DNA from: Candidatus Methylomirabilota bacterium
Lineage (GTDB): Bacteria; Acidobacteriota; Thermoanaerobaculia; Thermoanaerobaculales; Sulfomarinibacteraceae
DNA length: 64,000 bases
Direction of reading: 5' to 3'
Assembly: GCA_035464095.1 (NCBI GenBank)
Contig: DATHSO010000080.1
Location: 4,024 to 68,023, forward strand
The translations under genes were made by a program, and so were the position numbers. Positions 22,812 through 33,246 of the stretch are shown piece by piece. Numbering within the stretch: the stretch's first letter is position 1; every line of letters starts with the position of its first letter. A model generated the notes under the pieces. It did not search any database. It had not been told where the DNA came from and was given only the letters and a program-made list of their open reading frames with translations.

Positions 22812-23278
22812 GCTCTCTCCTTCGGGGGCTTCGGCGAGGCCGAGCCCTTGTGGTTTGGTTCTGCTTCGTCCGCCGGGGCGTGGTTCGACCCCCGCTGCGT
22901 CTCCGACCCCTCATCCTCGTTGCACGAGCAGCCGAGGCCGCGCCGCCGGCCGCCGTCGTGCACCGGGCACGGGAAGGGCTCGCCGGAGCCCGGGGTCACC
23001 GGCGCCTCGCCGATGACCAGCACCTTGCCGCCGACCAGGGCGTCCGCAACCGCCCTGCGCCCGCTGGTCAGGATGCGGCCGAAGGTCGCCCTGGAGACGC
23101 CCATGCGCTCGGCGGCGGTCTCCTGGTACAGGCCCTCCAGGTCGGCGAGGCGCAGGGCCTCGAGCTCGTCCCGACCCAGGGTGACGATCTCGAGCTCGCG
23201 TGCGGGCCGGCCGAGGGGCTTGAAGGCCTCGAAGGGGGGGGCGCCGCCGACCCGGCGGGGGCTTCTGGTCCTGGGCAC
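22808..23278 (-). CDS. DUF134 (UPF0251) putative DNA-binding protein
   Basis: N-terminus (M)PRTRSPRRV..P....FKP.G and sigma70-region-4-like LEALRLADLEGLYQETAAERMGVSRATFGRIL. GTG start. 4-nt overlap with the next gene. Confidence 0.75.
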   Translation of the reverse strand: MPRTRSPRRVGGAPPFEAFKPLGRPARELEIVTLGRDELEALRLADLEGLYQETAAERMGVSRATFGRILTSGRRAVADALVGGKVLVIGEAPVTPGSGEPFPCPVHDGGRRRGLGCSCNEDEGSETQRGSNHAPADEAEPNHKGSASPKPPKERA

Positions 23279-27195: not shown

Positions 27196-27918
27196 CTACT
27201 TCTTCGCGGCGAGGCCGGCGACGAGCAGCATGCTCTGCGGGTCGAGGACGATGTTGAGGTCCTTGGCGACCATCTCCTGGCGGTCCTTGAGGACGTGGAG
27301 CCGGATCTTGGCGTCGCTGGGGACGAGGCCGAAGGCCAGGTCGACCTCGTCCTCGAAGGTGTCGGCCGGCGGCGGCAGGTGGCCGGGCGCCGGGGGCTCG
27401 TGGCGGTGGGTGCGGCAGGCCATCCAGAGCTCGGCGCCGATCTCGCCGGCCAGGGCCTTGAGCTCGGTGATGGCCGGCACGTCGAGCTCGGTGTACTCCA
27501 TCCGGTCGAGGATGATGACCCCGGGCACGAACTCCATGGCGTCGTGCAGCAGGGCGACGGTCTGCCGGACGCGCTCCACCGAGAAGCTCTGGCCGACGAA
27601 GGTGTGGATGTGGCGGTTGCGCTCCATGAGCAGCTGGAGGGCGCTCAGGTGCTCGAGCTTCTTGTGGATCCTCAGCATCTCCACCAGGCTCTCGTCGTAC
27701 CACTCGCGGACCTTGTCGATGGAGCGCTCGATGGAGACGTGGAGGACCCTCTGGCCCGCGAGCAGGGCATCGACACCGATGGCGGTCAGAAACGCGGTCT
27801 TGCCGACGCCGGCGCGCGCCATCACCAGGGCGAGGCGGCCGGGCCCCGGGCCGGGGTGGCCGTCGCGGGCCAGCAGGGTGCGCGGGGAACGACGCAGGGA
27901 GATCATCAGCTCGGTCAT
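27196..27918 (-). CDS. stand-alone RecA-fold P-loop ATPase resembling the DnaB C-terminal / KaiC domain
   Basis: Walker [13 protein letters not shown] followed by VLHVSIERS; Walker B VIILDRM. ATG overlaps the EF-G stop (ATGA). Confidence 0.65.
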
Positions 27919-30005
27919 GACTCCTCCTCGACGACGGCCTTGCTCTTGTACTTCTTGAGCAGCTCCTCGGCGACGTCCTTGGGCGCCGGGGCGTACTTGG
28001 AGAACTCCATGGTGAACTCGGCCTTGCCCTGGGTCGCCGAGCGCAGGTCGGTGGAGTAGCCGAACATCTCGGCCAGGGGCACGTCGGCGTCGACCCGGGC
28101 GAAGCCGGCGTCCTCGGTGGAGCCGAGGACGGTCCCCCGACGCTGCATGAGGGACTTGAAGATGGCGCCCTGGAACTCGCCCGGGCCCTCCACCGAGACC
28201 CGCATCACGGGCTCGAGGATCTGGGGGCCCGCCTTGCGGTAGGCCTCCCGGAAGGCTGACCGGGACGCGATCATGAAGGCCATGTCCGAGGAGTCGACCG
28301 AGTGGGAGTTGCCGTCGGTGAGCACCGCCTTGATGCCGACGATGGGGAAGCCGATCAGGCTGCCCTTGTCGAGGGCGGTGCGGAAGCCGCGGTTGCAGGC
28401 GGGGATGTACTCGGTGGGGATGCGGCCGCCGCGGATCTCGTCGACGAACTGGTAGTCGCCGGTCTCCGACGGCTCGATGTAGCCCACCACCTTGGCATAC
28501 TGGCCGGAGCCGCCGGTCTGCTTCTTGTGCAGGTAGTCGAAGTCGGCGCGGCGGGTGATGGCCTCGCGGTAGGCGACCTGGGGGGCGCCGGTCTCCACCT
28601 GGGCCGAGTACTCGCGGCGCATCCGCTCGACGTAGACGTCCAGGTGGAGCTCGCCCATGCCCGAGATGATGGTCTCGTTGCTCTCCGGGTCGAGGCTGAC
28701 CCGGAAGGTCGGGTCCTCCTTGGCGAAGCGGGACAGGGCCTTGGACATGTTGTCCTGAGCCTTGGAGTCGACCGGGGTCACCGACAGCGAGATCACCGGG
28801 TCGGGGACGTACATGGTGGTCATGGTGAGGCGCGGGCCGCGACCGACGAAGGTGTCGCCGGTGTTGCAGTCGATCCCGAACAGGCCGACGATGTCGCCGG
28901 CGGCGGCGGACTCGATGTCCTCCATCTTGTCGGCGTGCATCCGCACCACCCGGCCGATCTTGATCTTGCGTTCGGTGCGGGTCTGGACAACCGAGTCGCC
29001 CTTGGCCAGGGTGCCCTGGTACAGGCGCAGGAAGGTGAGCTGGCCGTAGCGCCCCTCGTCGAGCTTGAAGGCGTAGGCCACGGTCTGGGCCTCCGGGTCG
29101 GCCGCGAGCTCGACAGTGGCGCCGTCACGGTCGAGGTCGAGGGCGGTGATGGGCACGTCGGCCGGGCTCGGCAGGTAGCGGGTGACTGCGTCCAGCAAGG
29201 GCTGCACGCCCTTGTTCTTGTAGGCCGAGCCGATGAGCACCGGGGTCAGCTCGAGGGCGAGCACGCCTTTGCGCACCGCGTCGTGGATCAGCTCGGGCGT
29301 TGCCCGGTCCTCGAGGGCGGCCTCCATGAGCTCGTCGGAGAACATGCTCGCCGCGTCAAGGAGCTCGGCCCGGCGCTCCTCGGCCTCGGCCCGGAGCTCG
29401 TCAGGAATCTCGGCGACCTCGACCCTCTCACCGTTGTCGCCGCGGAAGGTCAGGGCCTTCATCTCCACCAGGTCGATCACGCCCCGGAAGTCGGCTTCCA
29501 GCCCGATGGGCATCTGCAGCAGCACGGCGTTGTGGCCGAGCTTGTCGCGCAGGGCGTGGGTGACCCGGACCGGGTTGGCGCCGGAGCGGTCGCACTTGTT
29601 CACGAAGGCGACGCGCGGCACCTTGTAGCGCTTCATCTGGCGGTCGACGGTGATCGACTGTGACTGGACCCCGGCCACCGCGCACAGCACCAGCACCGCG
29701 CCGTCGAGCACCTGCAGGGAGCGCTCGACCTCGATCGTGAAGTCGACGTGGCCGGGGGTGTCGATGATGTTGACGTGGTGGTTTTTCCACATCACGTAGG
29801 TGGCGGCCGAGGTGATGGTGATGCCGCGCTCCCGCTCGAGCTCCATGTGGTCCATGGTCGCCCCGACGCCGTCCTTGCCCTTGACGTCGTGGATGGCGTG
29901 AATCCTCTGGGTGTAGAACAGGATCCGCTCGGTGAGCGTGGTCTTGCCCGAGTCGATGTGGGCCGAGATCCCGATGTTGCGGATCTTCGAGATGTCGCTG
30001 ATCAT
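27915..30005 (-). CDS. fusA: elongation factor G paralogue (not in an rpsL-rpsG-fusA-tuf context)
   Basis: 696 aa. G1 [10 protein letters not shown]3 DTPGHVDF, G4 NKCD. Full five-domain length. Confidence 0.9.
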
Positions 30006-30238: not shown

Positions 30239-30406
30239 TCATCCCTCAGAAGCCGGGCTGGGGAGATCCTGGAGCTCGGTGGGGGAGGGCTCGTCGTCGC
30301 CGTTCTCCTTGCTTTGGCGCCGCTCCATCTTTTCGACGCGCTTCTTCTGCTTCTTGAGTTCCTTCTGGCGCTTCTCGAACTTGTACGAGCCGGTTTTTCG
30401 TCCCAC
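30239..30406 (-). CDS. small lysine-rich protein (55 aa, GTG start), absent from the ORF track
   Basis: GGAGG lies 5 nt before the GTG at 30406. Translation (M)GRKTGSYKFEKRQKELKKQKKRVEKMERRQSKENGDDEPSPTELQDLPSPASEG. High third-position G/C. The competing 89-aa track ORF is Arg-rich and shadow-like. Confidence 0.4.
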   Translation of the reverse strand: MGRKTGSYKFEKRQKELKKQKKRVEKMERRQSKENGDDEPSPTELQDLPSPASEG

Positions 30407-30486: not shown

Positions 30487-30705
30487 TCAGCGTCTCGACT
30501 CCTTGAAGGCGGCAATGGCGGCCTGGGTGCGGCCGACCATGGCGTGGGGGGCGGGCCGGCCGCAGTCGCCCCGGCCGTCGATCGGAGTGCAGAGCATGCG
30601 GCACCAGGTGTTGCGGTGGCCGTAGAGCGGTCAGCCGAGGGTCCGGTACGGGGGCAGCGGGCGCCCGGAAGAGTTGCGCTCGGTCTCGGGTCGGAGCAGC
30701 GGCAT
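30487..30705 (-). CDS. small Cys-rich ORF interrupted by an in-frame TGA (selenoprotein candidate or pseudogene)
   Basis: GAGGAGGA lies 8 nt before the ATG at 30705. 24 codons, then TGA (30633-30631), then 47 more codons in the same frame to TGA at 30489-30487. Both halves have high third-position G/C. A hairpin follows the internal TGA. Confidence 0.3.
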
Positions 30706-30792
30706 GTCGGTGGTCCTCCTCGCAGGAACAGGAATCAGTCCTGCTGCGGTGGCCATCCTACCCGATCTCGGGGGCGGCTGTCGATTCCGGGA

Positions 30793-31002
30793 TCAGCCGG
30801 TCTTCGAGAACCGCGGGTGGTCGGGGCGGTACCAGCAGCTCTCGCACGAGCCGCCGAGCTCGCACAGGCCGAGGGGGCGCAGGCAGGTGTCGGAGTCGCC
30901 GGCGGCGCGCAGCTCGCCCACCGAGACCAGGGTCGTCTCGGCGCTGACATCGGGGCATCGCGGCGCATCGTTGGGGGGTACGGAGGCGGCGGCCGTCTTC
31001 AT
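30793..31002 (-). CDS. small Cys-rich hypothetical protein (69 aa)
   Basis: MKTAAASVPP...CLRPLGLCELGGSCESCWYRPDHPRFSKTG. 65 of 69 third positions are G/C. No clear RBS. Alternative ATG at 31020. Confidence 0.45.
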   Translation of the reverse strand: MKTAAASVPPNDAPRCPDVSAETTLVSVGELRAAGDSDTCLRPLGLCELGGSCESCWYRPDHPRFSKTG

Positions 31003-31120
31003 CGGGGAAGATCGTAGCATTGTCCGCGGAGGCCGCAGGGCCGATGATAAACTCGACGGGTCCGACCGGGCGCGAGCGGGCGCGCCGCTTTTCCGTGGGC
31101 TTCACAACCGACGCACCGAG

Positions 31121-33246
<2,126 letters not shown>

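Follow-up and report, generated by a model that had tools for sequence, protein, structure and literature searches.

The locus reported here has to be read against two kinds of described loci. The first are the genes forming a selenocysteine/cysteine (Sec/Cys) pair with their homologues, such as a Sec-peroxiredoxin (Sec-Prx) gene carried by the very genome under study. In the bacterial SECIS consensus, the element lies 16-37 nt after the UGA, folds with an MFE of -7.5 kcal/mol or lower and closes on a loop of 3-9 nt with a G in the first two loop positions, mostly as G[G|U] (PMC13188914, Fig. 2A); some bacterial SECIS elements depart from this consensus, according to the same review (PMC13188914). 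The second are the strain-specific nonsense alleles met in bacterial populations and MAGs, where a single-base stop interrupts an otherwise intact, conserved ORF. As to the type of protein involved, zinc-ribbon-like or rubredoxin-like Cys4 metal-binding mini-proteins may be the closest class.

Our window, i.e., the whole stretch of 64,000 nucleotides analysed here, has a G+C content of 71%. On its minus strand, a small Cys-rich ORF is interrupted by an in-frame TGA, and the original prediction, made from the letters alone, was that of a candidate selenoprotein or, alternatively, of a recent pseudogene. Direct reading confirmed the ribosome-binding site, its spacer, the ATG, the TGA and the continuing frame as they had been described. 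The features of the gene are the following:

30721-30714, minus strand: ribosome-binding site GAGGAGGA, read from the sequence, with an 8-nt spacer before the ATG
30705-30703, minus strand: start codon ATG, read from the sequence
30634..30705, minus strand: codons 1-24, MPLLRPETERNSSGRPLPPYRTLG, with a GC3 of 0.92, aligning with the N-termini of the homologues
30631..30633, minus strand: in-frame TGA, codon 25, at the site of an invariant Cys; TGC in a conspecific contig, the differing base being 30631
30625..30627, minus strand: codon 27, CTC (Leu); CGC (Arg) in the conspecific contig, the differing base being 30626
30490..30630, minus strand: codons 26-72, retaining C35, C39, G46, C48, G49, R50, A52 and H54, i.e., all the other invariant residues of the family
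30487..30489, minus strand: normal gene stop TGA, the same end codon as in the conspecific gene

Forty-seven sense codons in the same frame separate the TGA at 30633-30631 from that at 30489-30487. The ribosome-binding site is kept in the same position, as GAGGAGGA or GGGAGGA, in the two nearest metagenome relatives (L124 and L125). The G+C contents at the three codon positions are 0.71/0.62/0.92 in the first half of the candidate gene and 0.64/0.64/0.94 in the second, to be compared with 0.65/0.42/0.97 in the adjoining EF-G gene; the computed GC3 values (0.92 and 0.94) agree with the preference for G or C at third positions noticed beforehand, and both halves of the candidate are truly coding. 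Since TGA is the usual stop codon of the genome, accounting for about 76% of the stops of its long ORFs, there is no global recoding, which is also what had been concluded from the window.

The gene stands in a small group of ORFs:

30793..31002, minus strand: small Cys-rich ORF upstream of the candidate (69 aa as called on the conspecific contig), syntenic within the genus
30239..30406, minus strand: downstream basic, lysine-rich 55-aa ORF, syntenic within the genus, with the EF-G paralogue next
27915-30005: EF-G paralogue, after the 55-aa ORF

This order (69-aa Cys-rich ORF, 72-aa Cys4 gene, 55-aa ORF, EF-G paralogue) is kept in every genus-level locus examined. When loci from other lineages are compared, the gene order around the 72-aa gene is not conserved outside the genus, and the neighbours found there differ by lineage (a TypA-like GTPase, a SUI1-like gene or a rubredoxin-like gene); gene context thus allows no functional inference. 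Pfam and NCBIfam scans of the two small neighbours of the read-through product returned nothing significant. The region preceding the 72-aa gene contains two elements conserved among the nearest relatives, a TAGGAT-like box and a GATTCCTGT motif. The Cys-rich ORF lying upstream is in the same frame as the two halves of the candidate (window 30487-31020, minus strand), and only the TGAs at 30795-30793 and 30633-30631 split the three. GC3 drops to 0.6-0.7 at 30706-30792, so that the TGA at 30795-30793 does end a gene, rather than marking another site of recoding.

The 72-aa read-through product belongs to a gene family. Full-length matches over both halves were obtained in 23 of 40 relatives, with E-values down to 1e-33, and 10 of the 11 same-genus genomes match it over its full length. 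Conservation of the downstream half had been named as a test of the original prediction, and these full-length homologues include it. At a larger scale, the family is found in 65 of the 119 genomes of the order Thermoanaerobaculales, and all 54 matching relatives of a class-level search belong to the two families of this order (Acidobacteriota, Thermoanaerobaculia, Thermoanaerobaculales). Being absent from nearly half of the order, the family is dispensable. Beyond this order-restricted set, a few more distant relatives carry C...GLTKWCFALC...CGRPAPHA.

Members of the family (the window locus and loci L063-L126) are 69-76 aa long, with the consensus MxLLRPKxxR...CPxNGHQVxWCRGLCxPxxGxGxCGRLAPHAMxGRTQAAIAAY, which includes four invariant Cys and one invariant His. 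The invariant residues are M1, C25, C35, C39, G46, C48, G49, R50, A52 and H54; the product encoded in the window keeps every one of them except C25, replaced by the TGA. The resulting spacing, C-x9-C-x3-C-x8-C-x5-H, suggests a small metal-binding protein, as far as a residue pattern can indicate. The read-through product has no significant match in Pfam or NCBIfam, and a PDB profile search with the family found no relative; the sole PDB match, to a 33-residue toxin, was rejected (E = 0.39). The AlphaFold model obtained from a 51-sequence alignment has a mean pLDDT of 66.6 and a pTM of 0.40, too low for a meaningful fold search.

Which residue faces the TGA in these homologues was another question raised by the original prediction, an unrelated residue being expected to speak against Sec. 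It is Cys: in two alignments, of 20 and 51 sequences, the homologues show nothing but Cys in the very column of the TGA, and the codon is TGC or TGT in every aligned homologue. No TGA was found at the codon-25 site in the order (68 matches, 119 genomes searched), in any of the 61 loci from species-representative genomes, or in any of the three metagenome loci (68-85% identity). Four weak family matches with an in-frame TGA (G078:C184, G038:C194, G036:C28 and G009:C19) were discarded after their sequences had been fetched, as spurious non-coding frames without the motif; there is thus no Sec-bearing paralogue. It should also be kept in mind that the gene is Cys-rich and uses TGC codons, so that a mutation creating a TGA at random will strike a Cys in more than half of the cases. 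Of the single-base changes possible in the intact allele, 18 make a stop, 4 of them in Cys codons, and 7 make a TGA, of which 4 again are in Cys codons; with four in seven TGA-creating changes striking Cys codons, the alignment of the TGA with a Cys is weak evidence.

The intact allele is that of a conspecific contig (ENA ERZ27272644:k141_1159767), to which the exact sequence of the 55-aa ORF led us. This contig aligns with the window over 17,281 nt at an identity of 99.873% (22 mismatches). An exact look-up of EF-G returned the same contig only, that of the 75-aa upstream ORF gave no match, and those of the TGA-allele products (41 aa and 36 aa) retrieved no other contig carrying the TGA allele. 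In the conspecific contig, the gene is an uninterrupted 72-codon ORF and differs from the window at 2 of its 219 bases, namely, TGC vs. TGA at codon 25 (30631) and CGC vs. CTC at codon 27 (30626). Seven distinct sequences, whose sources are ENA, NCBI, JGI and Logan, make up the cluster of the conspecific protein at 90% identity or more; each of them reads G-C-P-R-Y-G-H, and codon 27 encodes Arg in the conspecific contig as well as in all seven. As these near-identical sequences all have Cys and Arg, the TGA and CTC states of the window are derived and arose within the species.

The 22 differences between the window and the conspecific contig are made of transitions and transversions in a ratio of 11:11. 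Five of them lie within 26 nt in a histidine kinase gene (32236-32261), an adjacent Ala/Ser swap among them; four more are packed into 55 nt at 23178-23232, near the end of the conspecific contig. Such clusters suggest micro-diversity, a recombination tract or a mixed-strain assembly.

The reading that we favour, with a probability of roughly 0.6, is that the TGA is a strain-level nonsense allele, i.e., a very recent loss of function. A C-to-A transversion would have turned the invariant Cys25 codon, TGC, into TGA, and a linked second transversion five bases downstream would have changed CGC (Arg27) into CTC (Leu); with the TGA read as a stop, the strain or sub-population would make a 24-residue fragment only. 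The downstream half would still look like a gene because too little time has passed for decay. What defines a nonsense allele is found here: a very close relative is intact, and a single substitution suffices to turn its gene into the interrupted one. The TGA presumably terminates translation, and the allele probably exists in the population and is no consensus error. Indeed, two changes 5 nt apart argue mildly for one haplotype over independent base-call errors. The recent pseudogene, which the original prediction had given in second place, is therefore the half of it that we retain, in view of the intact conspecific TGC allele.

A consensus or assembly artefact is a serious, though less likely, alternative: the organism would have TGC (perhaps also CGC) and an intact, ordinary gene, the A at 30631 and the T at 30626 being due to low coverage, damaged reads or an assembly path through a minor variant. 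The source genome is a 217-contig MAG, the two differences, C>A and G>T, are transversions separated by 5 nt, and all eight other near-identical sequences read Cys-Pro-Arg; the 11:11 ratio and the clustering described above, typical of a mixed-strain assembly, point mildly in the same direction. However, an artefact needs two errors together, both surviving k-mer filtering, and C>A and G>T on one strand would mean damage on opposite strands of one molecule, which seems unlikely for a single artefact.

Whether the TGA could instead encode Sec depends in the first place on the machinery. The genome encodes all four components that the original prediction had proposed to look for (selA, selB, selC and selD), so that Sec is not refuted on that count: tRNA-Sec is found at C81:61398-61492 (RF01852 match, 75 bits), selA scores 487 bits, selD 380 bits, and selB 316 bits (345 with its C-terminal piece). 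As a yardstick, selenoprotein genes were sought by a whole-genome scan for in-frame TGAs flanked by coding sequence. A first scan, with a strict codon-usage filter, did not recover even the candidate, while a looser one gave much noise (244 rows, mostly non-coding frames); only matches with clear protein motifs were used. Five genes were kept for comparison, all genuine or probable selenoprotein genes:

C128:1915, minus strand: Sec-peroxiredoxin, AhpC/TSA, FTFV-U-ATE; a Pfam AhpC-TSA/Redoxin domain spans U
C38:3430, plus strand: TlpA-like redoxin, WFPT-U-SGC; a Pfam AhpC-TSA/Redoxin domain spans U
C177:11248, minus strand: Prx-like redoxin, GHF-U-DHC; a Pfam AhpC-TSA/Redoxin domain spans U
C109:4487, plus strand: secreted U-x-x-C (U-S-T-C) protein, without Pfam match
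C25:10629, plus strand: Tat-signal protein, GG-U-GNGG, with a C_GCAxxG_C_C-family match and two CxxCH haem motifs

The last two may represent poorly described selenoprotein families. The SECIS elements of all five genes have a perfect stem of 6-7 bp and a loop of 3-5 nt, GGUC or AGUUG, the latter being common to the two Prx-like genes. Loops stand at +20 to +25 in four of the five, and the loop G-U at +21 to +24, again in four of the five, that of the C25 gene lying slightly further downstream. For the Sec-Prx gene, the TGA is kept in 23 of the 25 relatives with a match, and, of the 24 sequences with a TGA that were extracted, 23 have exactly the same GGUC loop, with compensatory changes in the stem. 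This yardstick covers five genes of one genome and their orthologues (24 Prx and 2 Prx-like), among which stem and loop are conserved.

The candidate's own hairpin, which the original prediction had described as loosely compatible with a SECIS, does exist:

30599..30622, minus strand: hairpin CGGC-C-ACCG / UGGU-GCCG with loop CAACACC, +12 to +35 from the U of the UGA

Its resemblance to a SECIS, on the other hand, holds only in the loosest form and at chance level. The stem is made of 4+4 bp with a bulged C, and the 7-nt MFE loop, CAACACC, has neither G nor U. Once the closing G.U pair is opened, the loosest bSECIS form is obtained (loop GCAACACCU, spacing of 16 nt, -9.6 kcal/mol); this loose descriptor, an approximate one that recovered four of the five genuine elements of the genome, also fits in-frame coding positions drawn at random in 28% of cases and ordinary TGC codons of the genome in 29%. 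Folding of the 67-nt stretch gives -17.8 kcal/mol, and its shuffles average -20.0 (z = +0.86), i.e., it is no more stable than its shuffles. When checked against the published consensus (PMC13188914), the hairpin lacks the G[G|U] loop pattern; when compared with the five Sec genes, it is unlike the targets of the organism's own SelB in its stem, its loop size and its loop sequence. An Rfam scan of the whole window at the gathering threshold found one tRNA only and no SECIS-type family. The candidate hairpin is not a canonical SECIS.

The same hairpin, often stronger, is present in Cys-bearing homologues of the genus, because it is encoded by the conserved Y-G-H-R-x-T-W-C-R stretch, and the conspecific TGC allele has it unchanged. 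Already there in Cys alleles, it did not arise with the TGA. In four genus relatives (L022, L027, L028 and L030), Arg-Val codons CGG GUC put GGGUC atop this hairpin, which brings these Cys homologues closer to the SECIS loops of the lineage than the hairpin of the window; this is probably a coincidence of codon choice.

A very young selenoprotein would imply a Cys-to-Sec switch within the species, at an invariant and probably metal-binding Cys, with SelB using the pre-existing YGHRNTWCR-encoded hairpin as a non-canonical SECIS. The genome does have tRNA-Sec, selA, selB and selD, at least four other selenoprotein genes show that it uses them, the codon replaced by the TGA is precisely that of an invariant Cys, the hairpin loop starts 16-17 nt after the UGA as in genuine elements, the loose bSECIS model fits, the rest of the ORF is undamaged, and non-consensus bacterial SECIS elements are known (PMC13188914). 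We nevertheless hold this to be the least probable of all the readings. The TGA is unique among about 130-140 homologues, a 99.87%-identical strain included; the G[G|U] motif of every genuine SECIS here is missing from an MFE loop that has neither G nor U, so SelB would have to accept a loop unlike its known targets in the genome; the hairpin is common to Cys alleles and is matched in stability by its shuffles; the loose model fits 28-29% of control positions; and C-x9-C-x3-C-x8-C looks like a metal site, not like the UxxC/TxxU redox motifs of the real selenoproteins of this genome. The selenoprotein put forward in the original prediction is given up on these grounds: a TGA seen in no other homologue, no lineage-type SECIS loop and a hairpin that predates the TGA.

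In a last reading, which is very unlikely as well, the allele is real and a near-cognate tRNA (Trp or Cys) decodes a part of the UGAs, SelB playing no role; a little full-length protein would then still be produced, and the gene would be attenuated but not dead. The UGA is followed by a C, UGA-C being a weak termination context in E. coli, and the downstream ORF is intact. However, TGAC ends 298 of the 847 long ORFs of this genome that stop at TGA; being among the commonest true stops, it is evidently an efficient enough terminator here, and for the same reason the TGA-C context was rejected as evidence. No stimulating structure stands out, and an intact downstream ORF is equally expected after a very recent nonsense change.

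Taken as a nonsense allele or as an error, the locus is a warning to those who predict selenoproteins in genomes that are rich in GC and use Sec: three standard Sec criteria (machinery, TGA on a Cys, loose bSECIS hairpin) would all suggest a selenoprotein, yet the call is almost certainly wrong, because TGA-creating mutations in a Cys-rich gene mostly strike TGC codons, the loose SECIS model fits about 28% of positions in GC-rich coding sequence and the hairpin is older than the TGA. The discriminating tests were the comparison with a conspecific and the use of the organism's own SECIS consensus. Two side products are a short list of genuine selenoprotein genes in a Thermoanaerobaculales genome and an unannotated, order-restricted Cys4/His mini-protein family.

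Compared with zinc-ribbon-like and rubredoxin-like mini-proteins, the family is alike in its length of about 70 residues, its four invariant Cys and its invariant His; it differs from them in having no Pfam, NCBIfam or PDB match and in a model of low confidence (pLDDT 66.6). Compared with Sec/Cys-pair genes, for which the Sec-Prx gene of the same genome is the natural reference, the candidate shares the in-frame TGA aligned with the Cys of the homologues, the selA/selB/selC/selD set in the genome and a hairpin loop starting about 17 nt after the UGA. In the case of the Sec-Prx gene, 23 of 25 relatives keep the TGA, the 7-bp stem is perfectly paired and shows compensatory changes, and the loop is GGUC, whereas the candidate has its TGA in one assembly only, a bulged stem, a CAACACC loop and a hairpin present in Cys alleles; the locus thus resembles a Sec/Cys pair but has neither the UGA conservation nor the lineage-typical SECIS of one. 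With strain-specific nonsense alleles, it shares a single-base stop in an otherwise intact conserved ORF, an intact conspecific allele and membership in a family often lost in related lineages. The sole difference from ordinary nonsense alleles is that the stop replaces a Cys in a Sec-using organism, and it is this coincidence that made the candidate look like a selenoprotein; a premature stop or a base-call error in the small gene of one strain is an ordinary phenomenon, and one already known.
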